64,000 nucleotides of DNA from contig JABVCE010000008.1 of NCBI GenBank assembly GCA_014905635.1, positions 124,001-188,000 of the forward strand, read 5' to 3'. The position numbers and the translations under genes were made by a program. Numbering within the stretch: the stretch's first letter is position 1; each line of letters opens with the position of its first letter. This DNA comes from Scenedesmus sp. PABB004. Its lineage: Eukaryota. Below are positions 1-16,322 of this stretch, piece by piece. The notes beneath the pieces were generated by a model. It was not told the DNA's origin, ran no database searches, and was given only the letters and a program-made list of their open reading frames with translations.

Positions 1-2045
1 CAAGAAGGGCGGCAAGAAGAAGATGTAAGCGCGCCGCGCGGCGCCGCGAGGGGGCGCGGCGGGGGCCGGGGCGTCGGCTGAGGCCCGCCGCCGCCGCGCA
101 GCGTGGACCCCTTCACCAAGAAGGACTGGTATGATGTGAAGGCGCCCTCCATGTTTGCCGTGCGCAACGTGGGCAAGACGCTCGTCACGCGCACCCAGGG
201 CACCAAGGTGCGCGCCCTCGACCGCGCGGGCGGCGGACCGGGGCCCGCGCGGCCGCGGGGCGGGCATCGCCGAGCCCGCCGGCGCCCCGGCGCCCGCAGA
301 TTGCCTCTGACGGCCTCAAGGGCCGCGTGTTCGAGGTCTCCCTGGCGGACCTGCAGAAGGTGCGCCGCCCGTCGCCGCGCGGGCAGCGGGCGCGGCGGGA
401 GGGGCAGCAGCAGCCGGCGCGCGCGGATGGTCGGCTGCTGCCGGCGCCGCCGCCGCGCACGCGCACGCGCACGCGCCCGGGCCGCCCCCCTGCCGGGCGT
501 GGCGCACGGGAGCAAGACGGCGGGCGGGCACCGGCGCAGCGGCGCGCGGGCGGCGGGCCAGCACAGCTCGCGGCGGCGACGGCGGCAGCAGCGGCGGCGG
601 CAGCAGCGGCGCGGGGCGGGCGCCGACGCGCCCCGCGCCGGCCGCCGCAGAACGAGGAGGACGCGTACCGCAAGATGCGCCTCCGCGTGGAGGACGTGCA
701 GGGCCGCAACTGCCTCACCAACTTCTGGGTGCGCGCGCGCGCGCGCGGGCGCAGGCGTGGCAGGGGCGGGCGCAGGAGCCGCTGGAGGCGGCGCGCAGCA
801 GCACCACGAGGCAGCGGCAGCGGAGCCGCAGCGGAGCCGCAGCGGAGCGGAGTGGCAGCGACGCTGTGGCGGCAGCTGCTGCAGCAGCGGCGGCGGCGGA
901 CCGCGATTGGCGGGCGAGCAGCCGGAGCCGGCGGGCGAGCAGCTGGCGGAGCGCCGGCGGTGGCACCCGTCAGCCTCAGCGGCAGCGGCAGCTGGAGCTG
1001 CTGCGGCAGTCGCGCCGGCGGCCGCGACGGGGGCAGCCGCAGCACCGGCAGCGGCGGCGGCGCGCGGGGCACAGGGGTCCTGCCCCCCTCGCGCACGGCC
1101 CGCACAGCATCCCGCACCCCGCTCACGCTCTCCTCGCGCCGGGCGCTGCGGCAGGGCATGGACTACACGACCGACAAGCTGCGCTCCATGGTGCGCAAGT
1201 GGCAGACGCTGATCGAGGCGCACGTGGACGTCAAGACCACCGACGGCTTCACGCTGCGCATGTTTGCCATCGCCTTCACCAAGAAGCGCCAGGGCCAGAT
1301 CAAGCGCACCGCGTACGCGCAGAGCAGCCAGGTGCGAGACGCGCGCCGCGGCGGCGCGGCGGCGGCGGGGCGCGGGGCGGCGGCGGGGCGCGGGGCGGCG
1401 GCGGGGCGCGGGGCGGCGGCGGGGCGCGGGGCGGCGGGGCGCGGCCGCCGCTCGGCAGCGGCCGGCCCGCGCCAGCGCCAGCGCTGCTGGCCTGCCCCAG
1501 CGCCCGGCCTGCGCGCCACGCTCACCCGCCGCCCCCCCCCCCCCCCCCTCTCTCCTGCGCCCCTGCCCGCGGCCCTGGCGGCCAGATCCGCACCATCCGC
1601 AAGAAGATGGTTGAGATCATGGCGCGCGAGGCGGGCGCGTGCGACCTCAAGGACCTGGTCGCCAAGTTCATCCCCGAGGCCATCGGCAAGGACATCGAGA
1701 AGGCCTGCCAGGCGCGCACGCCGCGGCTGGCGGGCGCGGCGCCGCGGCGCGGCGGGCAGCTCGCGCGGCCGCAGGCGCCTGTCGCGGCGGCGGTGGCGGC
1801 GGCGCTGACGCCCCCGCTGCCGCGCGCGCCGCTGCCCCCGCCCGCGCCCCGCTCCTCCGCGCTGCTCCCCGCAGGGCATCTACCCCCTGCAGAACGTGGC
1901 CATCCGCAAGGTCAAGGTGCTCAAGGCGCCCAAGTTTGACCTGCCCAAGCTCATGGAGGTGCACGGCGACTACACGGAGGAGGTGCCCGCCAAGGTGGAG
2001 CGGCCCGCGGAGCCCGCCCCCGCGGCCGAGGCGGCGGCGGAGTGA
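1..2045 (+). CDS. RPS3A: 40S ribosomal protein S3a (eS1), 5'-partial, 7 exons in window
   Basis: Spliced exons give [23 protein letters not shown]...[18 protein letters not shown]...[21 protein letters not shown]. Stop TGA 2043-2045. Last intron 1712-1874 is GC-AG. Confidence 0.97.
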
Positions 2046-2116
2046 GCTGCAGCTGCAGCGGCAGGGCGCGCCGCGGCCGCGGCGCGCCCCGCGCGGCAGC
2101 TGGTCGGGGCTTGCGG

Positions 2117-2121
2117 TGTAA
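2117..2121 (+). terminator. TGTAA polyadenylation signal of RPS3a
   Basis: Chlorophyte consensus TGTAA about 70 nt after the stop codon. Confidence 0.75.
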
Positions 2122-2167
2122 CACCCGCGTTCGACCTGTCGGCAGGACCGCCGCGCGGCGGCGTGCA

Positions 2168-2172
2168 TTACA
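2168..2172 (-). terminator. TGTAA polyadenylation signal of the convergent fasciclin gene
   Basis: TTACA on + strand, about 70 nt after the minus-strand stop at 2245. Confidence 0.7.
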
Positions 2173-2244
2173 TGTACAGAGCCGGCCACATCCAGCTCAG
2201 CTCAGTCCTCCGTGCCAGCTCTCTCCCCTTCCTCCTCTCTCGCT

Positions 2245-5200
2245 TCAGCCCTCGAGCCGCTGCAGCAGCGCGCCCTGCTCCGTCGCCAGGGACGGCTGCG
2301 CCTGCTGCGCCGCGCCGGGCGGCAGCATCGGTCCGCCGGCCGGCAGCGGCGGCGGGCAGTTCAGGCAGCCGCCGGGGCCGGCCTCGTCGTTGTTGTTGTA
2401 GTACGTGCCGCCGCCGCCGTAGGTGCCAGCGCTGCCAGCGTTGTAGCCGGTGCCAGCGCCGTAGCCGGTGCCGCCAGTGCCGTACCCGCTGCCGCCGGCG
2501 GCATTGTAGCCGCTACCGCCAGTGCCGTACCCGCTGCCGCCAGCGTTGTAGCCGGTGCCAGCGCCGTAGCCGGTGCCGCCGGCGCCGTAGCCGGTGCCGC
2601 CGCCGGTGCTGCTGTAGCCGCTCGGCGCGGCGGGCGGCTCGTAGTCGTACGCGGGCGCGGGCGAGGGCGAGGGCGAGGGCGCGGGCGCGTAGTCGTCGTC
2701 GTTGCTGTACGCCGGCGCCGGCACGGGCGTGGGAACGTACACCGGCGTGGGGACGTAGACCGGCGTCGGCGCGGGCGAGTAGTAGCTGTCGGCGTAGTCG
2801 GTGCTCGGCACGGGGGTGGGCACGGGGTAGGGCACCGGCACGACTGCCTGCGCGCGGGGACGGAGGGGCGGGCGGGCGGGTGGCCGGCCGGCGTCGGCGG
2901 CGGCCGCGCGGCGGCGCGGCGCGCGTGCACGCCCGCGCCCGCGCGGCGGGCAACGTGCGGCGCGGCGCCGCACCGGCGCGGGCGCGGGGGCCTGGTAGTC
3001 GTCGTTTGAGCTGCCGGAGCTGCCAGAGCTGTCCGAGGTCGTCGGCGTCGATGTCGTGGGCGCATAGTCCTCCGCCGGCGGCGCCGGGGCGTCGTAGGTG
3101 CTCGGCGCGTAGACAGAGATTGGAGCGGGCGCGGGCGCGGGCAGGATGGTGGCGGCAGGCGGCACGTAGTTTGTGGCGCCCGGCACGTAGTTTGTGGGCC
3201 CCGGCAGGAAGTTGTTGGTGGTGTCGCCGCTGTTGATGTAGCGGGGGCCCCAGCCGGCGCCGGCGCGCGGCCCGTAGCGCAGGCCGTACCCCGTGTTGCC
3301 GCCGGCGGCGCCGGGGCTGTAGTCGGCGGGGCGGAAGCGCGTCGCCTCGCCGCGGCGGTCCTGGGCGGCGGGGTTGGTCCACGACGAGGGGTTGAACCCC
3401 TGGCCGCGCCCAAACGGATTGCCGCCGCCGCCGTCTTGGCGGCGGCGCGGCTGGAACGGCGGCTGGCCGCCGCTCGGCACCTGCCCGCCGCCCATCCGCG
3501 GCTGCTGCATGCGCGGCTGCTCCATGCGCGGCTGCTGCATCCGAGGCTGCTCCATGCGCGGCTGCTGCATCCGAGGCTGCTCCATGCGCGGCTGCTGCAT
3601 CCGAGGCTGCTCCATGCGCGGCTGCTGCATGCGCGGCTGTTCCATACGAGGCGCCTGCATCTGCGGCGCCCGAGGCGCCTCCATGCGCGGCGCCTGCATC
3701 TGCGGCGCCCGCGGCTGGTCCGTGCGCTGGGCGCGCAGCAGGTGCCTGCGGAAACGCCGCCGGTCTTTCTCGTCGCTGGAGCTGCTGCTGCTGCTGGAGC
3801 TGCTTGAGCTGCTGCTGCTGCTTGAGCTGGAGCTGCTGCTTGACCTTGAGCTGCTGGAGCTGCTGGGCGCGCCGGTGCTCGAGGCCGTCTTCGTGGCAGT
3901 GGCCTTTGCAGCGCCGTCGCCGCTGGTTCCGCTGGAGGAGGAGCTGGAGCTGCTGCCACTGCCGCCGACGTTGCCCGCGTGAGCGGCCGCCGCGGGCGCC
4001 TTGGCGGCTGCCGCGGGCGCAGGCGCCTTGGCGGCTGCCGCGGGCGCCTTGGCGGCCGCCGCGGGCACCTTGGCGTCTGCCGCGGGCGCCTTGGCGGCCG
4101 CCGCGGGTGCCTTGGCGGCCGCCGCGGGCGCCTCGACGCCCTGGGGCAGCAGCAGGCCGTCGACGCCGTGCAGCACGCCCGCGCCGATGTAGATGTTTGG
4201 CAGGTTCACCAACGCCGGGCCGCTCGGCGAGCCCGCCTCGGGCAGCACCGTCACCGCCAGCAGCCGATCGGGGGCGCCCCCGCCGACCGGCGCGGGCGCG
4301 TCGGTCCTGCGCGGCGGCGGCGGCGGCAGCGGGAGCAGGGCGCGGCTCGGCGCGCGGTGCGCGTGGGACACCGCCTCTGGCCGGCCGGCAGCCCGCCGGC
4401 GCACCAGTTGAACGCAACGCGCAGGTCGTGCCCGGGCAGCGTGGTGGCAAAGGCCCGGCCGGGCGCGAGGCCCGAGGGGATGGGCCAGTAACCGGGCAGC
4501 GTGTGGTAGCGCGCCGCGGCGGCGGCGCCGGCGCCGCCGGGGGGTGGGCCGCGCGCGAGCACCGCGTTGCGCGGCGCGAGGAGCGTGACGTTGCCGAGCG
4601 GCGCCGGCGCCGCGGCGCGCGTCGCGGCCGCCGGCAGCGCGCCCGCGCCCGCGAGCGCCGCGGCAAAGGCGCTGAAACGGGGGTAGAAGGCGGCAAAGGC
4701 GGGCAGGCTGGTGAACACCTCGCCTGCGGGGCGGGCGGGGCACAGGGAGCGCGGCGCGACGGGCGGGGCGGCGGGCGCGGCGGCGGTGCTCAGGAGAGGC
4801 GGCGGCGAGGCGGCGGCGACCGCGGCCGGGCGGGTGGTGCACCGGGGCGCGGCGTGGCGCGGCGGGGCGCACCGCTGAGCAGCACGCGGTCGACCTTGAG
4901 CACGATGCCCTTCCCCACGGGCACGCCGGGGCCGAGCACCGCGGCGGTGCCGCCCTGCGCGTCGGCCGCGCGCAGCGCGCCGCCCGGCGCGCGGTGCAGG
5001 CGCAGGCGCAGGCCGGGGTTGACCGTGCGCGCGAGCGTCGGCGCGGCGGCGTTGGCGCTGACGTGCGCCGCGATCGCCGCGGGCGTGAGGGTGACGCTGG
5101 GGATGATGTGGTACGTCGCGAGTGCGTCGATGAGCTCGGGCCGGGCGCGCAGCTCGTCGATCGTCAGGCCCATGCTGCCCGCGAAGCGCTCGACCGCGGC

Positions 5201-5714
5201 GTTGACCGGCGCGAGGAGCGTGAAGGGCAGGGCGCCAAAGTCGCTGGACCGGAGCTTGAGCATGTCGATGAGGGAGAGTATCACGCTCAGGTCGGGCGCG
5301 CGCAGCGCGGCCATGATCGGCGGCTCGCCGTCGTCGGCCTTGGGCGCGCCGGCGGCGGCCTTGGGCGCGGCAGTCGCAGGCTTGGGCGCGCCGGCGGCGG
5401 GCTTGGGCGCGCTGGTGGCGTTGCTGCGGGGCGCGGCAGGCGGGCGAAGCAGCGGCGGTGACGCCGGCGACGCCGCGGCCGCGGCAGAGGCCGAGCAGCG
5501 GCGACACAGGCCTCGTCAGTCTGCTGGGACCCCGCCAAAGGCTCACCTTGCCGGCGCCGGGCTCGGCGCGGCCTGCGCGCGGCGCGGCGAGCGGGAGGAG
5601 TGAGCGTGCTGCTTTTCGGCTGGAGCGCGCGGAAGGGCGCCGCGCGCCGTCCATTCGCACCGTGACCAGCGTCAGCGCCAGCAACAGGAGCGTCACCGCA
5701 AACGGACGGGCCAT
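2245..5714 (-). CDS. Secreted cell-wall/ECM protein: signal peptide, two fasciclin (FAS1) domains, then Ala/Pro, Ser, MQQPR-repeat and Gly/Tyr/Pro-rich regions
   Basis: N-terminus MARPFAVTLLLLALTLVT. FAS1 motifs FTLLAPVNAA..YHII..VLKVDRVLL and VTLLAPRNA..YHTL..VLHGVDGLLLP. Continuous ORF to TGA at 2245. Confidence 0.8.
3494..3718 (-). repeat. Coding tandem repeat (MQQPR/MEQPR/MQAPR, 15/30-nt unit)
   Basis: Visible repeats of catccgaggctgctccatgcgcggctgctg. Confidence 0.9.
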
Positions 5715-5943
5715 GGCGCCGCTCGGCGGACAAAACTCCTCGGCCTCGCTCCTGCCGCCCGCGGCGGCCGCCCGTGCTGCGCGCGCGGCCGGCACCCCAC
5801 GCGTTGGAGCGATCGACGCTGGACTGGCGCGGCGCAGCGCGGGCGCAGCTGGTGCTGCGGTGCGGCAGCAGCTGGAGCGCCGCCGCGAGGTTCTCGCTGT
5901 GCCCCCCGGAAGACTGTGCAGAACGACTTGCCCGGCCGGCCGC

Positions 5944-7143
5944 TCACTCCTCCCGCGGCGGCAGCTGGGCGAGGCCGAACTGCTTGGTCAGCAGCTCCAC
6001 GACGGCGTCCGCCGCGACGCCGCGGCGCACGACGCGGAAGCCGCCGCGCGGCGCGTCGACCAGGTCCAGCACGCACGACCCGGCCGCCGCCGGCGACGCA
6101 GCGGCGGCGCGGCCGCCATCAAACACGGCCGCGCAGAAGGGCCAGAGCTCCCGGAAGTCGGTGGCCGCGAACGTGCCGCCCGCGCCGCTCGCGTTGGCGC
6201 TCGTGAGCGCGAGCGGGCCGCCGAGGCGCGCCGCCACGGCCGTCACGAACCGCGCTGGCACGACGCGCACGCCGAGCGCGCCGGCGCCGGCGCCCGGGCG
6301 CGGCGGCGCCGCCACGCCCGGCGCGAGCGGCGCGCCGGCGCGCAGCGGCAGCACGACCGTGACGGGCCCCGGCAGCAGCGCGTCGAGCAGCCCCGCCGGC
6401 AGGCCGTCGACGTCACAGAGCGCCGCGACGGCCCCCACGTCAGCCACCGCGACCGCGAGCGGCGCGTCGGGGGCGCGGCCCTTGATCGCGCGCAGCTGCG
6501 CCACCGCGCCGGCGTCGCCCGCGGCCGCGGCGAGGCCGTAGAGCGTGTCGGTCGGCAGCGCGACGACGCCGCCGGGCGTCGCGAGCGCGCGTGCCGCGTC
6601 GCCGACGTGGTCGTCGCTCGCCGGCAGCAGCACAAAGCCGTCGCCCGGCGCGTGCCGTGCCGCGCCGCCGCGCCCGGCGCCGCCGCCGCCGGGGTCGTCG
6701 CCGCGGGTGTCGCGGTGTAGGGGTTTAGCGCGCCATGCGAGGTCATAGACCACGGCGAGGTGGTCCGAGGGGAACGCGGCGCTGGGTATGAAGCTCGCCA
6801 GCACCTCCCGCGGCGGCACCGGCAGCGCGGCCGTGACGGACAGGCGGGCCGGGTCGAGCCACACGTAGTCCAGCAGCGCGACGTAGCCGCTCGTGAAGTT
6901 GGTGTACGGCGTGGCCAGGTCGTCCGCGCTGCGTGAGCGCGCGGCGCGGGGGGTGCGCGGGCGCGGGGGGTGCGCGGGACGTGTGAGCGCGGGACGCGTG
7001 TGAGCGTGGGGGTGGCGCGGCGGGAGGGGCGGGCCGGGGGGCGCACCTGCGCAGCACAAAGGGGATCGTGACGTCGACGCCGACGGGCGGCAGCTCCGCG
7101 CGCGGGCTCGACTCGGGCGGGTCAAAGTCGTGGCCGTCCGCCA

Positions 7144-7177
<34 letters not shown>

Positions 7178-9897
7178 GGCCTGCCCCTGCCCGCTGCCGT
7201 CCGGCGGCGCCTGCTGCGCCTGCTGCGCCTGCTGCGCCTGCTGCGCCTGCTGCGCCTGCTGCGCCTGCTGCGCCTGCGTCTGCGCCTCCTGCTCCGCCGC
7301 GTACTCCTCCTCGTCCTTGCCCCACCTGCCGGGCGCGGCGGGGCGAGGCGGGGCGGTCAGGCGGGCGAGCGCGGGCCGCCCGCGCCGCGCCGCGCCGCGC
7401 GGCGGCGCGCCTGAAGCTCGCGCCCATGCGCCAGTCCCAGTGGTCTGCCGCGAGGCGGCCCGTCTGCAGCATCTCCACCACGCCGGGCACGCCGCTGTTG
7501 AGGTCGCTGTTGAGGTCGCCGCAGAACAGCACGCTCGGCGGCGGCAGCTCCGCCAGGCGTGCGAGCAGCCCCGGCTCCACCGCGCCGCCGTCGGTGCTGT
7601 CGCCGCCGTCAGCGCCGTCAGCGCCGCCGCCGCCGCCGCCGGCCGCCGCCGCGGCGGCCCACTCGCGCAGCGCCGCGTCCGCCTCGGCCAGTATCGCCGC
7701 GGTGTGCAGCGAGCGTATGTGCGGCGCGTAGGGGTGGAAGAAGAGGTGTGTGTTGACCACCAGCAGCGGCGCCGGCGCCGCGCCGCCCGGCCCCACGCCC
7801 GCGGCGCCGCCGCCGTCGCCGTCGCCGCCGGCGGGCGCCGCCGCCCCGGCGCGCGGCACGAGCAGCACCATCTGCGCGACGGTCGTGACCTTCTGCAGCG
7901 CCTCGGCCAGGTGCGGCGAGGCGTCGAGCATGGCCGCAAACTGGGCGTGCCGCGGCGCGAGCGGGCGCCTGAAGACCTCACGCAGCCGCACGTCGCGCAG
8001 CGCGGCGGCGCCCCACTTGGCGCTGCGCCAGAACATCGCGCTGCCCTCGCGCACGCGGCCGCTCTTGTTGGTGTAGTGCCCCGCCCAGCCCCCGCGGCGC
8101 AGGTGGGGCGCCAGGTACTCGGCAAACACCTTGTCGTCCACCTCCTGCAGGCACGCGACGTCCGGCTGCCGGCACGCGGCGGGCGGCGGGCGGCGGCGCG
8201 CGTGTGAACGGTCCAGCTCCCTGCGCCGAGCGAGCGCGCGGTCGCGTGCCGGCCGGGCGCCGCCGCGGCTGCTGCGACCGCCGCGGCCGCCGTGCACACA
8301 CCTGGTACCGCAGTACCTCCTCGAGCACCAGCTGGCGGCGGTAGTTGTTGTCCAGCAGCGGGCGGGGGCAGTACTTGAACAGCACCTGCGCGGCGGGGCG
8401 GGGACGGGACGGGACGAGCGGTGAGCGCTGTGCGCTGAGCACCACGCGCTCGGGCGCCGCCGTGCGAGCGCCGCGCGTGCGCGGGCGGACGACATGCGCG
8501 CGCGCGCGCGGGCGGACGGCAGCGCCGCGCCTGCTGCGCGTAGGCGGTGCCCGCGTACTGGTCGGCCAGGATGTTGTAGCTCAGGACGCGCAGCCGCCAC
8601 GGCTCCGCCAGCGGCGCGAGCGGGCTGAGCGCGCGCAGGCGCGCGGCCGACGCCTCCGGCGCAGCGCCGACGGGGCCGCACTGCGCGGCCAGCGCCTCGC
8701 CGCGCGCCGCCGGCGCCCCGGGCGACCCGGCAAAGCGGCCGGGCGTGCACTCGACGCGCAGCGCGCAGCCAACGTCGTCCGGGGAGGGCGTGTAGCACGC
8801 GTCGCCGCACCCGACGTCCTCCCAGCTGTCGTCGCCGCCGGCGCTCGCGCCGCCGCCCGGCGCGGCGGCGCGCCGCCGGCGCCAGCGCCAGCTGCACGCG
8901 TCGGCGTCGGCAAACGCGAGCGCCGCGGTCGGCAGGATGGGGTGGCCGGCCATGGGGAAGCCGGGCAGGCCCAGCGACTCCACGGTGGGCGGGTTGACGG
9001 TGATGTCAAACTCCACAGCGCCGACGCGCAGCAGCGCGGCGCGCGGCCAGGCCTCGCCGTTGGGCGTCGCCGGCGGGATGAGCCTGTGCGCGCGGCGGCG
9101 GCGGGTGCTCCTGAGCGGGGCGCTGCAGCCTGTGGCGCGCGGCGCGTCCGCCGCAGGCGAGGCTGGCACGCCGGCGCCGGCGCGGCGGCGCTCACTGCGT
9201 GCCCGCGGCGTCTGCGTAGAGGCCGACAAAGACCTCGCCGCCCTCGCCGGGCGCCGGCGCGCCCGCCGCGCCCGCGTCGGCGGGGTCTGGCCGCTTCTTC
9301 TTGCGTCTGTCCTGCTCTGCGGCGGCGGCGGCGCAGCGGCGGGCGGTGAGCCGGGGAGCGGCGGCGAGCGGCCGCAGCCGAAGCGCCGCCGGCGCGGGCC
9401 GCGCGCCGCGGCCGCGCGCGCACTCGAGGGCGCGAGGCTGGCGCGGATGCGCGTGAACGGCTTTTCAAGCGGCTCGCCCACCGGCCTGCGAGCGGCAGAG
9501 AAGGAGTTCAGCCCGACTGACCCGCGCCGGCGCTCGCGGCTCGGCCGCGGGCGGCACTCGCGCGGCGCTGCTGTGCGCGGCCGCCGCCGCGCCTGTCCAG
9601 GTTGCGCGTCTTGCCGCCGAGCATCAGCGTGACGGTGAGGTTGGGAGCGTCGGGCTTGACCCGCACGACCGCCTGCGGAAAAAAAAGGCGCCTTTGGCCG
9701 CCGCGCCTGGCAGCGGCAGCAGCAGCGGCGCCGGCGCTGCCGCTGGCCCGGAGAGCGGGCCTCACCGTCTGCCGCACGGCCGTCTCGCTGGTCGCCGCCA
9801 TCGCGCACGCCCTGACCGGCTGCCGAGCAGCGCGGCGCAGCCCGTAGCACGCGGCGGTGGCTGCTGCTGCGCGGCGCCAGCGCGCGGCAGCAGCCAT
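5944..9897 (-). CDS. PDE12/CCR4-type EEP deadenylase fused to a C-terminal YrdC/Sua5 threonylcarbamoyl-AMP synthase domain
   Basis: EEP motifs VLSYNILADQY, CLQEVD, NTHLFFHP, GDLNS, YTNF..LLDYVW, FPSDHL. In the same exon and frame: YrdC motifs VVALPTDTLYGL, IKGR..PL, LLPGPVT, LTSANASG. ATGs at 9897 and 9801. Confidence 0.88.
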
Positions 9898-9958
9898 CGG
9901 CGGCGGCGGCCCTGGCCGAGCTGGGCGACTGGCCAGAGGCGCGGGGCAACGTGCTCAT

Positions 9959-9963
9959 TTACA
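9959..9963 (-). terminator. TGTAA polyadenylation signal of MYB3R
   Basis: TTACA on + strand, about 30 nt after the stop at 9992. Confidence 0.6.
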
Positions 9964-9991
9964 AAGCGGCGCGGTTTAGCAGCGCTGTGCC

Positions 9992-12900
9992 TCACGCGCC
10001 CGCCGGCTGCTCCTGGCTCAGGCCCTGGCGATAGAGCAGCGGGTACGGCGTGGTGGCTGCGACCAATTTGATGACGCCCGCCTGGCCGCCCCGCCCGGTG
10101 TCCGGGCTCAGCGGCGTCGCCTCGCCGCCGCCCGGCCGCGGCGCGCCAGCCGCGCCGGCGCCGGCGGCGCCGGGCTTGGCGGCGCCGGCGCCGCGCGGCG
10201 CGTGCGCCGGCTGCGCGGCGATCAGCACGTCGCCGGGCGAGGCCCCGAGCGCCGAGCTGCCCAGGCTGCTGCCGTCGACGCCGCTGCCCTGGTGCGCGAG
10301 GCCCCGGCGCCGGGCAGCAGGTGCCGCACGCCGGGCGGCGCGCCGGCCGCCGCGGAGCTGCCGCCGCTGCTCTCCGCGCGGCCGGCGCCGACCGCGCGTT
10401 TGACGCCGAGCGCGCCGAGCGTCTCCGGCGTGGCCAGCAGCGCCTGCAGCCCGCCGCCGCCCGCGCGCTGCAGCAGCTGCTGCAGCAGCTGGCCGTGCGG
10501 CGCGCCCGGCGCCTTGGCGCCGCCGCCGGCGGCCGCGGCCAGCGGGCCGAACAGCGGAGACGGCTCGCCCGCAAGGCCGGCCGCCTCGCCCGGGGCGAGT
10601 CCTCGCCGCCGCCGCTGCCCCACGGCCGCCGCCCGCAGCCGCCGCGCGGTCCGCCACGGGCAGCGGGCTCGCCGCGTCGTCCAGCGTGGCCGCCGCGCCC
10701 GCGCCGCTGCGCTCGTCGCCGCCGGCGTCGCCCGCCGCGCTGACCGCCGCGGCCGGCAGCAGCGCGCTCGCCAGGGCGCGGTGCAGCGCAGACATGCCCC
10801 CCGGCTGCGAGCGCTGCGCCACGGCCGGGCTGGCCTGCGTGCTCGCGCGCGCGAGGCGGTGCTTGGCTGCCGCCGCGTCGCCCGCGGCGCCGCGGCTGCC
10901 CTGGTCATACGCCGCGCTGCCGCTGGCCTGGCCGCCGCCGCCGTGCGCCCCACGCGCCGCGTCGTCGCCCTGCCACTGCTGCCACTGCAGGCGCTCCTGC
11001 TGCGAGCTGCCGCCGCCGTCGCCGGCGCCAGGGCTCGCGGGCGCCCGGCTCCCGCGCCTGCTGTGCGCCTGCTGCCCGCCGGGGCTGCCCTCATCGCACG
11101 GCTCCGGCTCGGCCGCGCCGCCCTGCGCCACGGTGCCCTCGGAGCCCTGGCCACCGAGCAGCTGCGGCTGGCGCATCGGCTGCGCCGCGGCGGCGGCCGC
11201 CGCCGCGCTGCTGCGGTGGTGGCCGCGGCGCCGCGCGGAGCCGGTGAAGGGCAGCGAGGGGCTGCGGCTGGTGTCGAGGCTCGCCAGCGCCTCGGCCGCC
11301 AGCGCCTCGGCGTCGCTCTCAGCCTCGGCCTCCGCCGCGCCGGCCGCCGCCGAAGCCGTCACTGCCGCGGCCGCCGCAGCCGCGGTGGTCGCCGCCGGGC
11401 TGCGCACCACGCCCAGCAGCCGCGCGAGCTTGGGCGACTGGCCGAAGCGCCCCACGCTGGCGGGAGACTTCTGGAACAGCGGCAGGGGCTCGCCGTAGCC
11501 GCCGTGGCCCTGGCCCAGCGCGGCGCCCGTGCCGCCGGCCGACGGCGGCATGAACACGCCCAGCCCGCCCCAGTCCAGGCCGTCGGCGCCGAGGCCGAGC
11601 CCCAGGCCCGCGACCTGGCTGCCGCTGGGCGGCGCGCGCGGCGTGCTGCCCGGCACGCCGCTGCCGGGGCGGCCGCGGCCGGGCCCCGCCGCAAGCGCAG
11701 GGCTCAGCTGGTCCAGCGCCTGCAGCCCAAACTGGTCTTGCGCCAGCGCGCCCTCGTCGCCGCCCGGCGGCTGCGCCTGCCACTGCTGCCACTGCTGCCA
11801 CGCCTGCCGCGACCACTGCTGCTCCGCGGGCGGCGGCGCCTGCTGCTGCGCCGGCGCTCGCCGCCGCTTGCCCGCCCGCCGGCCGCCGCCGCGCCACGCG
11901 TCGCCGTCGCTGTCCGATGGCGCATCTGCGCCGTCGCCGCCGGCCCCCTCCTCCTCGCCCTCCTCCTCCCACTCCTCGCGCGCCCGCTGCCGCTTGCGCG
12001 CCGGCTGCTTGGCCGCGCGGCCGCCGCCGCGCGGGCGCTGCGCGCTCGCCGTCGTCGCCGTCGCCGTCGCCGCCGCCGCTGCGGCCGCGACGGCGCCGTC
12101 TGTCGGGCGGGCGGGCGACGCGTGCCGCGCGGGCTCAGCCGCGGCCGAGCGCCGCGCGGCGCGCGCAGCGCCGCGGCCCAGCGCGCCGCGCCGCCGTCAC
12201 CGCCGCGCGCTCACCGCGCGCCCCGCCGCCGCGCAGCACGTGGTCGAACTCGCCCGCCTCCACGCGGCGGCGCAGCGTGGAGTGCCAGTGGTTCTTGATG
12301 GCGTTGTCGGTGCGCCCCGGCATCGCGCGCGCGAGCGCCGCCCACTGGTTGCCCAGCTCCGCGTGCAGCGCGACCAGGCGCTCGTCCTCCGCCGCGCCCC
12401 ACTCGGCGCGGTTGATGCCAGGGTCGAGGTGGTTCACCCACCTGGGCGGCCGAGGAGGGTGGCAGCGCGCACGGCCGCGTGGCGGCGTGGGAGCGCGCGG
12501 GCGCCCAGCTCGGCGCGCGCCGCGCTGCGGGGAGGCGGCGGGGAGGCGGCGGCTGCGGCGGCGCACCGCTCGCGGCACTGCTTGCCGATGCGGCCCGGCA
12601 GGTGCGACGCGATGAGGGACCACTTGCTCGCGCCGTGCTCGGCCACCAGCTCGACGATGCGCGCGTCCTCCTGCGAGCGGCGGCGCGTGGGCGCGCCGCG
12701 CCGGGGGGGGGGGGGGGGGCGCGCCCGCCCCGCCCGCTCCTCCCCGCGCCGCGGCCGCCGCCGCACCTGCTTCGTCCACTTGCCCTTGACGAGCGAGGGG
12801 TTGAGCACCTTCTGCCAGCGGTGCAGGCACTGCACGTCCGAACGACCCGGCAGGTACTCGGCTGCGGCCGGGCGGCGCGGCGGGGGCCAGGCGTGAGAGG

Positions 12901-13349
12901 GCGCCGCCGCGCATCGCCGCCGCGAGGCTGCCCGCCGCGACTGCCCGCCGGCGCGCGGCCGCGATCCAGCCGCTGCAGGAGCGCCTTCGTCTGCGCCTCT
13001 CCGCGTCGCCGCGCGCCGCACCGATCCGCTTCCAGTTCTTGGAGTTGTGGTGCGCCACCGCGCGGCGCAGGATCTCGTCCTCCTGCGGCGGGGCGGCGTC
13101 GGTGGTGGCGGCGCGGCTCGAAACCGGCGCGGCGCGCGTGGCTGCGGCGCGCCGGTCGGCGCGCTGCCGGCGGGCGCGCACCTCGTCCGTCCACTTGCCC
13201 TTGCTGCTGCGCCGGGCGGGGCAGCCCACGCTCCTGCGGCGCGCGGCGGCGGCGGCGACAGCAGCGGCGGCGCCGCTGTTTGAGCGGCGCGCCGGCTGCC
13301 GCTCTCGACGCCGGCTGCCCGCTCTGACGATGCTGGGAGAGCGGGCCAT
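9992..13349 (-). CDS. MYB3R: Three-repeat MYB (R1R2R3 / MYB3R) transcription factor
   Basis: Repeats [76 protein letters not shown]. Start (13349 vs 13415) and 3' exon structure uncertain. Confidence 0.88.
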
Positions 13350-13862
13350 CTGCGAGACGCTGTCGAGAACGCCCAGCCGCCCGCAGGCGAGCGTTTGCCG
13401 CTGAGCGCGCGCCATCTGCTTCGAGCGCTTCGACGCTGGGCGCCTCCCGGCGGTCAGCAGCCGGGCCAGCGCCCCGCGCTGGCTCACCCGTCCACTGGGG
13501 GCAGCTCCTCAAGCCCCGCCTGCGCTGCCCCCCGGCGCGCCATCGGGGCGAGCAGCTCACGGGCCCCACGGCATCCTGCTGCGGTCGGGCGGTGGCCCAG
13601 CACCAGCACCGTGCGCTGCTGATGCCACGCCCGAACCAGGCGAGCAGCTGCGGGCGGCGGCGCGGCAGGCAGCAGGCGGCGCGCGGCGGCGGCGCGGTCC
13701 GCGCTGCTGCTCGCGCGCGGGGCGTTTCGTCCCCTGCAGAGGCTGCGGCTTGCTGGCTGGTCTCTGCGGCCTGGCGGCCCCACGCCACGCCCCGGCCGCG
13801 CGGCTGCGGCGGCCTGCGTGGGAACCGCCGCCCTGCGCTTCAGGCCGCGGCGGCGCTCGCGC

Positions 13863-16322
13863 TTACTCGGCGCCGAGCCGCGCCCGCTGCTTCGCGCGCA
13901 TGCGGTACACGTCGCGCCCCGGGCCGCCGAGGCCGCCGAGGCCGCCGTCGTCGTCGTCCTCGAGCTCCCGCTTCACGCCGCCGCCGCCGCCCCCGCTGGC
14001 GGGGTCGCCCGGCGCGCCCTCGCCCGGCCACGCGTCGGCCATGCCCAGCAGCGCGTCGACCAGGGTGGCGAGGTCCGGCAGCGGGCCGTCCAGGTAGTCG
14101 TGGTGGGGCAGGCAGGAGAGGAAGCGGTCCAGCGGCGGCGGCAGCAGCCCGCCCGGCGGCGGCCCGCCGCGCGGCGGCGCGTGCAGGTCGTGCGGCGCGC
14201 CGCGCCGCACCATCGGCGGCGGCGGCGAGCGCTCGCGCTCGTCCCAGTCGCGCGGCGGCGAGCGCGGCCCGCCGCGGTCGCCGTCGCTCGGCCGCTCGCC
14301 GCGGCGCGCGCCGCGCTCAAAGCCCGGCGGCGGCGGGCCGCGGCCGAGCAGGTGCGCGACGTACGCCCGCGTCCCCGGCGGCAGCGGCCACGCGTCCAGG
14401 AACGTGTAGCGCAGCAGCAGCAGCTGCACGTTGCGCGCCGCGCTCGCGCCGCCGGCGTCGCCGAGCGCCTCGCGCGCGCGCTTCTCCAGGCGCAGCGCGG
14501 CGCCGAGGTCGCCCATCTCGAATTCAAACGCCAGGTAGCGCTCCCACAGCGCGGCGCTGCGGCGGTTGGCGTCCTCCGTCAGCACGCGCTCAAACAGCGC
14601 GCGCGCGTTGTCGACGTCGCCCACGTCTGCGGCGCGCGCGGCGCGCGGGCAGGGCGGCGCGCGCGTGTGGGCGGCGCGCGCGGGCGGGCGGCGCGTGGGC
14701 GCGCGCGCGCGGAGCGTGCCGCGCCGCAGAGAGGAGGGCTCCTCGCCCCGCCGCTGCGCCGCCGCCGCCGCAGGCTTAACCCCGCCGTGCTCTCACCGCA
14801 GAGGAAGCGCGCGTACTCGAGCACATACTCTGGCGTGACCGCAAACTCGGGGACCTCGAGCCCCTTTTCAAAGATCTTGCGCGCGACGTCGCGCTCGCGC
14901 GCGGCGCGCCACTCCATGAGCGCCGCCGCGACGTAGACCTGCCAGGGGCAGCGCGGCGCCTTTTTGGCGCGGATGAACATCTGGCGGCGCGGGGGGGGGG
15001 GGGGGGCACAGGGCACAGCGGAGGCGGCGGAGCGTGAGGCGTGGGGTGGGGCATGGGGCACGGCGCAGGGAAGGGGGAGGGGGCAGGCCGGCGGGCGGCG
15101 TGCGAGCGAGCGGCGGCGCGCGACGCGGGCGGCGGCGACCGGCGCGGCGCGCGCACCTTGCGGCTGGCCAGCACGCTCTCCGCGCGCCGCGCGAAGCGCA
15201 TGTACTGCACCCACACCAGCGCCGCCTGGTCCGACGGCAGGTCGGCGACCGGCCCGCCCGCCGGCGCCGGCGCCGGCGGCGGCTCGGCGCCGGGCTGCTG
15301 CGGCGGCGGCGGCGGCGCCGCGCCCGGCGGCGGCTCCAGCTGCTTGACGAGGCACTCGTACACCTGGCGGCGCAGCGCGCGCACAGCACGTGGGCTCAGC
15401 ATGCGCAGCACGCGCGGCGCCGTGCCCGTGACAGTGCCGCTGGGGCGTCGCGCCGCGCCGCTCCGTCCGTGGGCACGCGCACCTCCTTTGCGGCGGCGAC
15501 GTTGCCCTGCGCCTCCTGCAGGTCTGCGAGCGCGAAGTGCAGCAGCAGGCAGTCCGGCAGCGCCGACACGCCGCGCAGCAGCACCGCGGTCGCCTGGTCC
15601 ACGCCCTTGCCCGCGTCGGCGTGCCAGCGAGCAAAGTCATACCAGACCTGCCGGAAAGTGTCGAGCAGGCCGCGGCGGCGGCCGGCACGGCGGGTGGGCA
15701 GCCGGCACGGCGGGTGGGCAGCCGGCACGGCGGGTGGGCAGCCGGCGCAGCCGCCACCGGCGCGACCAGGCGCCGCGCTGCGTCGCCGCCCCGCGGCGCC
15801 CGCGCTCGCCTCTGGGAAGTGCAGCAGGCACATGGTCGCCTGCTGGTACGCGAGCTCGACGCGCTGCAGCAGCGCGGCGCCCTCGAGGCGCTGCGGGTTG
15901 GAGCGCTCGTACTCGACAAAGCCCTTCCACGCCTTGACCTGCTCCGCCTGCCCCGGCCCGCCCTTGCCTGCGGCGGACGCGGACGACGCGGCGCCGGCGT
16001 CGGCGGCCGTGACGACGGTGCGGGCGCGGCGGCGCGAGCGAGCGAGCGCGGCGCGACCCGCGACCCGCCCGCGCCGCCGCGCACCCGGCGGCAGCGGCAT
16101 CGCGGCGGTGTCGATGCCCTCGAGCTTGCGCTTGCGTTCGCGGTACGCCATGCGCGCGGCCTGGAAGCGCGGGCGCTGCTCCGCGAGCAGCTTGGCCGCA
16201 AAGGCCTTGGCGCCCGCGCCCGCCGCCGCGGCGGCGCCCTCAAAGGCCTCGTAGTTCTTCCAGATGAGCTCCAGCGAGTGCGTGGGCACCACGATGGCGC
16301 GCTGGTAGTGCCTCCTGCGCCA

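Follow-up and report, generated by a model that had tools for sequence, protein, structure and literature searches.

A stretch of 64,000 nucleotides from Scenedesmus sp. PABB004 (GenBank assembly GCA_014905635.1, contig JABVCE010000008.1, positions 124,001 to 188,000 of the forward strand; hereafter the window, numbered from its first letter) carries on its minus strand a gene in which a nuclease of the PDE12 type is joined in frame to a YrdC domain. Comparison with other genomes indicates that this PDE12-YrdC fusion is one real in-frame protein, encoded by one nuclear gene and common to many green algae, and the conservation of both halves shows it, as far as sequence can, to be old and under selection. 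It is a real, undescribed variant of known enzymes. We regard it as probable that the product is a two-enzyme protein whose halves are both active and are tethered for joint synthesis and a shared compartment. The proposal, made originally from the letters of this DNA, that a PDE12-type nuclease and YrdC form one in-frame protein has stood up well: both sets of motifs are intact, and the arrangement occurs in many algae and in unbroken genomic open reading frames (ORFs).

Domain composition of the fused protein

The fusion gene occupies 5944-9897 of the minus strand in nine exons (3051 nt, 1016 aa, no internal stop codon). The model was built by tblastn with algal homologues and from splice sites read in the DNA, and its protein is 63% identical to the Tetradesmus obliquus homologue P0003 and 58% identical to that of Raphidocelis subcapitata (P0036). 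We infer that translation starts at the ATG at 9897-9895. The parts of the gene are as follows.

Exon 1, 9766..9897, minus strand: 44 codons from the ATG at 9897-9895, an N-terminal extension rich in Ala and Arg; a further Met, M33, is in frame
Exon 2, 9593..9672, minus strand: AVVRVKPDAPNLTVTLMLGGKTRNLD(R), the block conserved at the N-terminus of PDE12-like proteins; basis tblastn with Tetradesmus P0003 and gene model
Exon 3, 9424..9485, minus strand: PVGEPLEKPFTRIRASLAPS; basis tblastn and gene model
Exon 4, 9196..9316, minus strand: Lys-rich stretch, then ...VFVGLYADAAGT; frame and GT-AG borders read in the DNA
Exon 5, 8531..9083, minus strand: Ig-like PDE12-like_N domain at about 8735-8992, then the beginning of the EEP domain (RVLSYNILADQYAGTAYAQQ); a GC-AG intron is next
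Exon 6, 8302..8385, minus strand: VLFKYCPRPLLDNNYRRQLVLEEVLRYQ (EEP domain); basis tblastn and gene model
Exon 7, 7411..8165, minus strand: EEP catalytic core with CLQEVD, VVNTHLFFHP and FCGDLNSD, and two low-complexity inserts; a GC-AG intron is next
Exon 8, 7047..7325, minus strand: WGKDEEEY, QAQQ repeat, poly-Pro tract, then ...VGVDVTIPFVLR(S); basis DNA reading, tblastn and gene model
Exon 9, first part, 6730..6928, minus strand: last EEP strands (PYTNFTSGYVALLDYVW ... FPSDHLAVVYDLAWR)
Exon 9, linker, 6643..6729, minus strand: AKPLHRDTRGDDPGGGGAGRGGAARHAPG, 29 aa by the boundaries chosen here, Gly/Arg/Asp-rich, no Met and no stop
Exon 9, YrdC/TsaC domain, 5944..6642, minus strand: stop codon at 5946-5944

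Profile matches and alignments to solved chains show the N-terminal ~755 residues to be an orthologue of animal PDE12, with an Ig-like PDE12_N domain and a putative Mg-dependent EEP 3'-5' exoribonuclease domain. The PDE12-like_N profile PF21171 matches exon 5 alone with E=1.3e-12 (48.1 bits, cut-off 27) and is found by Pfam in the upstream frames of the window at E=1.5e-11. The EEP profile PF03372 reaches 26.8 bits (cut-off 24.5) in an upstream frame that was read through introns. The best solved relative of exon 7 is human PDE12 (4z0v, E=2.7e-11), with CLQEVD, NTHL..HP and FCGD.NS aligned, as against 1.5e-4 for ANGEL2 and 7e-4 for Ccr4. The EEP C-terminus in the last exon behaves in the same way (human PDE12 1e-09, Ccr4 6e-5, nocturnin 2.5e-4), and the nuclease half is by these matches closer to PDE12 than to Ccr4, ANGEL2 or nocturnin. 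The blocks CLQEVD, NTHL.FHP, FCGDLNS and PSDH, which hold the EEP catalytic residues, align with human PDE12, and all of the 27 fused proteins aligned (27 of 27) keep PSDH unchanged.

The likeness to animal PDE12 runs to the very end of the human protein. The C-terminal EEP segment aligns to the last 62 residues of the human chains 4z2b, 4z0v and 4zkf (E=1e-09), and ...PSDHLAVVYDLAWR of the window is paired with ...PSDHIALVCDLKWK, the final residues of the human chain. Since the alignment stops at the end of that chain, the algal protein extends ~260 residues past the usual end of PDE12: the animal enzyme finishes at ...DLKWK, whereas the window protein adds the linker and the YrdC domain.

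The C-terminal ~230 residues are shown by profile, motif and fold to be a predicted TsaC/YrdC-type L-threonylcarbamoyl-AMP (TC-AMP) synthase of the eukaryotic YRDC lineage. PF01300 (Sua5_yciO_yrdC) matches over positions 5-178 of its 178 (E=1.1e-27, 97.2 bits, cut-off 25.1). The motifs PTDTLYG and LLPGPVT are present, together with the KxR/SxN tetrad, encoded on the minus strand at 6483-6481 (K), 6477-6475 (R), 6201-6199 (S) and 6195-6193 (N). This tetrad (K54/R56, S148/N150) is invariant in 30 of 30 aligned YrdC sequences, and it serves as the criterion for a functional TsaC/Sua5 in the available part of PMC10321239. Compared with solved TC-AMP synthases, the C-terminal 232 residues match MTH1692 (2.8e-16) and Pyrococcus abyssi Sua5 (1e-10); PTDTLYG, KGR and SAN align with the latter. 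An AlphaFold model of the domain made with 30 aligned relatives has a predicted local distance difference test score (pLDDT) of 93.4 and a predicted template modelling score (pTM) of 0.90. Its top folds in Foldseek are S. tokodaii Sua5 (3aje, E=7e-15, query TM-score 0.77), T. maritima TsaC2 and P. abyssi Sua5 (query TM-scores 0.77-0.78); against E. coli YrdC (1hru) the target TM-score is 0.78. As in eukaryotic YRDC and bacterial TsaC (1hru, 2mx1), no SUA5 domain was found after YrdC, the protein ending about 10 aa past that domain with PF01300 as the only Pfam match there. The window domain differs from these enzymes in being the C-terminal module of a nuclease, with no separate start codon. 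Among stand-alone proteins its closest relatives, at 38-51% identity, come from plants, streptophyte algae and animals and bear the name 'yrdC domain-containing protein, mitochondrial'.

The two halves meet within the last exon, which runs from 6928 to 5944, opens with ADDLATPYTNFTSGYVALLDYVW and reaches ...FPSDHLAVVYDLAWR before the spacer and YrdC. The minus-strand frame 5944..7356 is open, and the acceptor of the exon reads ...cacgcag/CGCGGAC at 6929/6928. The translation of 5947-6927 is a protein of 327 aa with neither a Met nor a stop. Together with the full-length PF01300 match, this translation agrees with the original prediction of a terminal EEP motif, a Gly/Arg linker and a complete YrdC domain in that exon, separated by no stop, intron or in-frame ATG. 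An intron within the linker was considered and ruled out: the linker DNA contains, by eye, no AG dinucleotide, and the flanking LPA motif is conserved. The GC content of the three codon positions is 0.93/0.76/0.86 in the linker and 0.87/0.60/0.97 in the YrdC part.

Two bases past the Arg codon of DLAWR, the place where Volvox PDE12 ends, the minus strand has an out-of-frame TAA (6727-6725); it may be due to chance or be the remnant of a former stop codon. The poly(A) signal TGTAA occurs neither within the fusion gene nor near 6720, an absence that says little with only 8 copies in 64 kb.

Fused and unfused relatives

The architecture recurs well beyond the window. A search with the last exon for longer proteins gave 23 matches, 18 of them carrying both PF01300 and PF03372, and an exhaustive HMMER scan of 1.84 billion representatives found dozens of proteins of 600-1100 aa that match positions ~1-320 of the query unbroken at their C-terminus. 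With phmmer, the EEP C-terminus is followed by YrdC in 78 of 302 retrieved proteins, a count that includes near-duplicates and the ORF of the window itself. In these 78 proteins the two domains are 8-112 aa apart. Among 27 aligned fused proteins the motifs PSDH, PTDT.YG, K.R, LLPG, R.P and ALTSAN.SG are kept; the linker is free to vary, in composition as well. When a profile was built from 12 fused proteins of full length, it brought back 99 PDE12-like clusters, of which 44 carry both domains in the order found here. In an ESM Atlas cluster of 56 members, PF01300 is present in 100% and PF03372 in 98%, and Chlorophyta is the commonest phylum; a search of the Atlas with the last exon itself as query gave no usable match. 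The named carriers of the fusion, from three chlorophyte classes and one haptophyte record, comprise:

Chlorophyceae: Raphidocelis subcapitata, Tetradesmus obliquus
Trebouxiophyceae: Auxenochlorella protothecoides (and a hybrid strain), Micractinium conductrix, Micractinium sp.
Trebouxiophyceae, continued: [Myrmecia] bisecta, Apatococcus lobatus, Elliptochloris bilobata
Ulvophyceae: Ulva mutabilis, Bryopsis sp., Ostreobium quekettii
Haptophyte: Diacronema lutheri, one EukProt record, P0323, 823 aa

The Diacronema record has identical Logan contigs and lies near the unnamed marine clusters P0040 and P0056 in both of the trees described below. It could reflect a wider ancestral spread of the fusion, gene transfer from a green alga, or contamination.

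Genomic and transcript-like sequences contain the same junction. Of 80 metagenome loci fetched by junction patterns, seven encode both domains within a single ORF of 244-1142 aa that has no stop; the remaining loci are YrdC-only or EEP-only. The seven are:

L001 and L002: 1142 aa
L003: 858 aa
L004: 904 aa
L021: 1015 aa
L033: 828 aa
L065: 244 aa

Moreover, one fused cluster corresponds to an 893-aa ORF on contigs of 100-216 kb, and fused ORFs of 879 and 956 aa nearly fill Logan contigs of 3.3 kb, which look like mature transcripts.

One order of green algae departs from this pattern. Ten PDE12-like entries from eight Chlamydomonadales all lack PF01300:

Volvox carteri, V. africanus (two entries), Gonium, Edaphochlamys
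Haematococcus (two entries), Chlamydomonas sp. UWO241, C. eustigma, Sanguina

Nine of these ten end 2-20 aa past the D..W of the EEP domain, as do shark and fly PDE12, and the tenth, one of the two Haematococcus models, diverges past PSDH. Over the PDE12 part the window model is 50-52% identical to the Volvox carteri and Gonium proteins. A quick maximum-likelihood tree of this part was made from 34 rows, with branch support from the Shimodaira-Hasegawa-like approximate likelihood ratio test (SH-aLRT) and animal PDE12 as outgroup (100, starred). In it the window is sister to Raphidocelis (98, starred), which together with the identities given above makes a sphaeroplealean green alga its probable source, and the unfused Chlamydomonadales (87) are sister to the fused group of the window, Raphidocelis, P0002 and P0004 (95, starred). 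The whole chlorophycean clade, fused and unfused (97, starred), is nested among fused trebouxiophyte and ulvophyte sequences. Because the unfused group nests within the fused clade when the root is placed on animals, the simplest reading is that the YrdC half was secondarily lost in the Chlamydomonadales. Constraining all 19 fused rows together cost 41 units of log-likelihood (p-AU 0.015 in the approximately unbiased test). In both the tree and the topology test one insect row, Eupeodes, was mis-cut at the wrong SDH (318 aa) and is to be discounted.

The loss can be set beside the distribution of Sua5, another TC-AMP synthase. In the available text of PMC10321239, Sua5 within Chlorophyta is recorded only in Chlorophyceae, in 7 of 7 species as against 0 of 6 other chlorophytes. 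Its Sua5 sequences include those of Chlamydomonas reinhardtii (A0A2K3DSN0) and Volvox carteri, and the Volvox Sua5, most similar to that of a mucoromycote fungus, is raised there in a screen for horizontal gene transfer. The Chlamydomonadales differ from the window both in having a PDE12-like protein that stops 2-20 aa past EEP, with no YrdC, and in including these two species, listed as Sua5 users in that portion of the paper. Since loss of the fused YrdC coincides with the presence of another TC-AMP synthase, it can be argued that the fused domain is a working synthase where it has been kept. A 2015 review (PMC4615747) gives Chlamydomonas reinhardtii, in the part available, as a YrdC (Tcs1) user, contrary to PMC10321239 of 2023, a conflict that affects the interpretation of the YrdC loss.

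Possible function and alternative explanations

The known activities of the separate human enzymes provide a plausible scheme for the fused protein. According to the accessible text of PMC9181182, PMC8348895 and PMC9723649, human PDE12 strips spurious oligo(A) from mitochondrial tRNAs and 16S rRNA and so restores aminoacylation. Human YRDC, found in the cytoplasm and in mitochondria, makes TC-AMP, which OSGEPL1 transfers to five mitochondrial tRNAs (PMC8348895 and PMC7102964, as far as their text was available). By analogy, the nuclease half of the algal protein would trim untemplated 3' A-tails from tRNAs and other non-coding RNAs. The YrdC half would make the labile TC-AMP, which a transferase of the Qri7/OSGEPL1 or Kae1 type would place on A37 in the synthesis of N6-threonylcarbamoyladenosine (t6A). 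The variable low-complexity tether would mainly ensure joint production of the two activities and their delivery, near tRNA, to the same compartment or compartments. In lineages devoid of Sua5 the fused protein would probably be the TC-AMP synthase of the cell, and the Chlamydomonadales, among which Chlamydomonas and Volvox carry Sua5, would have dropped the YrdC half. A complex prediction between the PDE12 and YrdC parts of the Auxenochlorella protein scored 0.00; the alignments were unused in that run, and it gives no verdict.

The window protein had originally been proposed to be a bifunctional organellar tRNA enzyme. The single PDE12-YrdC protein with intact motifs was upheld; the organellar coupling of tRNA 3'-end repair to t6A was not, the N-terminal evidence for targeting being weak. 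The extension M1-A32 resembles a presequence in being Ala/Arg-rich, and the first 44 residues contain 8 Arg/Lys and 1 acidic residue. However, any frame at 80% GC gives an Ala/Arg-rich peptide, which makes such an extension an unreliable sign of a presequence. By reading of 15 homologue N-termini, 6 have a clear extension, whereas 7 start at the conserved KAVVR block and have no presequence. That the two starts, M1 and M33, permit dual targeting is speculation.

Besides this weak support for an organellar presequence, several observations count against the reading of an old, active two-enzyme protein. The PF03372 match only just exceeds its cut-off, in a frame that spans introns. The TC-AMP synthase equivalog model TIGR00057 of NCBIfam scores 85.5 bits, under its cut-off of 123.2, and NF007919 (TsaC type 1) 35.1 bits against 175; both models were made for naming prokaryotic proteins. 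The Tetradesmus P0003 model is without ~50 aligned YrdC residues that include the KxR block, which looks like a gap in the gene model or assembly and not a real deletion. A quick tree of the YrdC domain is too poorly resolved to count fusion origins: five label changes are needed on it, of which the starred branches force only one. In the topology test of the PDE12 part, the clade was chosen after the tree had been viewed. Finally, with Sua5 in 7 of 7 Chlorophyceae in the available part of PMC10321239, the Sphaeropleales, to which this organism probably belongs, may hold both Sua5 and the fusion, which would weaken the notion of a sole synthase here.

The strongest alternative is a neutral 'hitch-hiking' fusion, in which a single loss of a stop codon joined two adjacent genes and the two enzymes remained independent, acting on unrelated substrates, possibly in the cytosol; the arrangement would persist because re-splitting is hard. 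The variation of the linker in length (8-112 aa) and composition would fit this, as would the 7 of 15 homologue models read as having no presequence, and the Chlamydomonadales, in keeping PDE12 without YrdC, show the halves to be separable. Against it, the fusion, with neither catalytic site damaged, has been kept in named species of three chlorophyte classes and in a haptophyte record, loss of YrdC is seen in a single clade, which includes two species listed with another TC-AMP synthase in the available text of PMC10321239, and the separate human enzymes both act on mitochondrial tRNAs in the sources cited above, as far as these were available. We consider a purely neutral fusion rather unlikely.

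A more far-reaching proposal takes the fusion as a 'Rosetta stone', in which removal of 3' tails of the PDE12 type and the initial reaction of t6A synthesis would belong to one eukaryotic route of tRNA maturation and surveillance. In most green algae a single polypeptide, distributed to several compartments by the alternative starts M1 and M33, would then be the only source of TC-AMP, acting on the very tRNAs that it de-tails, and the Chlamydomonadales would have shed YrdC only after gaining a fungal-type Sua5. This extended version seems to us doubtful. If it were true, the same partnership would be expected between the separate human PDE12 and YRDC in mitochondria.

It could also be that the YrdC domain has no catalytic role and serves to bind RNA, delivering tRNA or structured RNA to the nuclease, while TC-AMP is supplied by another gene such as Sua5. 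E. coli YrdC was initially reported to bind RNA, and the score of the fused domain under the TIGR00057 equivalog cut-off would agree with such a role. The window, moreover, groups with the chlorophycean Raphidocelis, and Chlorophyceae are reported as Sua5 users (7 of 7) in what was available of PMC10321239. In spite of this, KxR/SxN, PTDT.YG and LLPGP are invariant or nearly so in the fused proteins, which argues against a role in binding only, since a binding-only module would be expected to lose them. The closest relatives are ordinary stand-alone plant and animal YRDCs, and the fold matches TC-AMP synthases solved with bound ligand. A binding module is therefore an improbable reading.

The last possibility, two genes or an assembly error masking a stop, read as a single ORF since stop codons are rare at 80% GC, could invoke the six frames open for hundreds of codons at the locus and the out-of-frame TAA right past DLAWR, at the end point of Volvox PDE12, but it is essentially excluded, because the junction recurs in other genomes (78 retrieved proteins and 7 independent genomic ORFs without a stop), both halves keep their catalytic blocks and the linker varies; the domains are, besides, only 29 codons apart in an exon with no Met, and the YrdC part has a coding-type GC content at third codon positions (0.97).

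Relation to known systems, base composition and neighbouring genes

Several fusions of YrdC-like domains are known: Sua5 (YrdC and SUA5), HypF, TobZ, Mycoplasma TsaC/HemK and TsaN (PMC4615747, PMC9654439 and PMC10321239, in their available parts). TsaN has the order TsaD-TsaC-SUA5-TcdA (PDB 8ide), and chains of 8ide, HypF and TobZ are among the matches of the window YrdC. These proteins resemble the window protein in linking a YrdC-like adenylate-forming domain to a partner enzyme and, in most of them, as described in the same partial texts, that partner either catalyses the following step of one reaction chain (a Kae1-like transferase) or is a SUA5 domain. The partner in the window is, in contrast, an RNA 3'-exonuclease that does not use TC-AMP.

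The accessible portions of these three papers on t6A evolution contain no mention of an EEP/PDE12, exonuclease or phosphodiesterase partner of YrdC. Nor did full-text searches find a description of a PDE12-YrdC fusion; they turned up reviews of human mitochondria, unrelated papers or no paper at all, and subscription-only papers and bioRxiv supplements lay outside their reach. In the available part of a review of mitochondrial RNases, PDE12 has a single '+' in a comparative table and is discussed for human mitochondria only, and in that of a Chlamydomonas photosynthesis screen (bioRxiv 2022.11.12.515357) it appears only as a comparison for the nocturnin-like PMR1. Databases name one half or the other: UniRef uses 'Threonylcarbamoyl-AMP synthase', JGI and NCBI '2',5'-phosphodiesterase (12)', and one annotation of the hybrid Auxenochlorella strain 'TPD1'. 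The papers bearing on TPD1 that were found for TPD1 and Chlamydomonas concern a plant tapetum gene. The view that the two enzymes are known only as separate proteins accordingly stands for the literature, in which no fusion is described, but not for the databases, where the architecture is present under half-names. This is a systematic annotation problem. The architecture escaped notice because the model algae, Chlamydomonas and Volvox, are the exceptions.

Both halves are well studied and tied to the health of human mitochondrial tRNAs, with no functional link between them so far proposed. Retention of the fusion in named species of three green-algal classes, together with its apparent loss in the order that contains the model species listed with Sua5, provides a hypothesis that can be tested: t6A synthesis and the clean-up of tRNA 3' ends are coordinated, or must at least share a compartment.

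The locus is extremely GC-rich (72-84% in 500-base steps across positions 1-16000). Sixty-five stop-to-stop ORFs of at least 40 aa overlap 5000-11000, and at the 75-84% GC of the gene region all six frames are open over hundreds of codons. Because such a composition opens every frame, an open frame alone is weak evidence, and support for the fusion gene therefore comes from domain matches and conservation in other species, not from missing stops. The eight introns of the gene measure 85-145 nt, five being GT-AG and three GC-AG. The GC-AG introns are numbers 2, 5 and 7 (9592-9486, 8530-8386 and 7410-7326, minus strand), with donors AG/GCGCGG or AG/GCGCGC, and each is demanded by homology to keep the frame, for example YAQQ/VLFKYCP against YAQQVLFNYCP in Tetradesmus. 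Three of eight is a high share for a single gene and may be a trait of a very GC-rich genome. Exon 1 has a GT donor at 9765, and its frame continues into the AVVRVKPD block conserved in exon 2; the stretch in exon 4 is similar to the matching region of the homologue P0002. The EEP domain also contains long low-complexity expansions, namely (QAQQ)n, a run of 10 Pro and Gly/Ala/Asp runs, which distinguish it from animal PDE12 and are without counterpart in the aligned regions of the human protein:

7150-7290, minus strand: low-complexity expansion in exon 8
7590-7660 and 7800-7860, minus strand: low-complexity expansions in exon 7

Upstream of the fusion gene, a minus-strand ORF at 9992..12196, with no Pfam match, has its stop codon at 9994-9992. 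A TGTAA at 9963-9959 (minus strand), overlapped by an out-of-frame ATG at 9958, lies ~60 nt ahead of the ATG of the fusion gene (9897). With the upstream stop and this TGTAA so near that ATG, the intergenic spacer and the 5' untranslated region must be very short. On the other side, a long Ala/Pro/Ser-rich ORF at 2245..5163 has no Pfam match, and the next gene downstream (4793-5515, minus strand) contains a fasciclin (FAS1) domain, PF02469, with E=1.4e-07.

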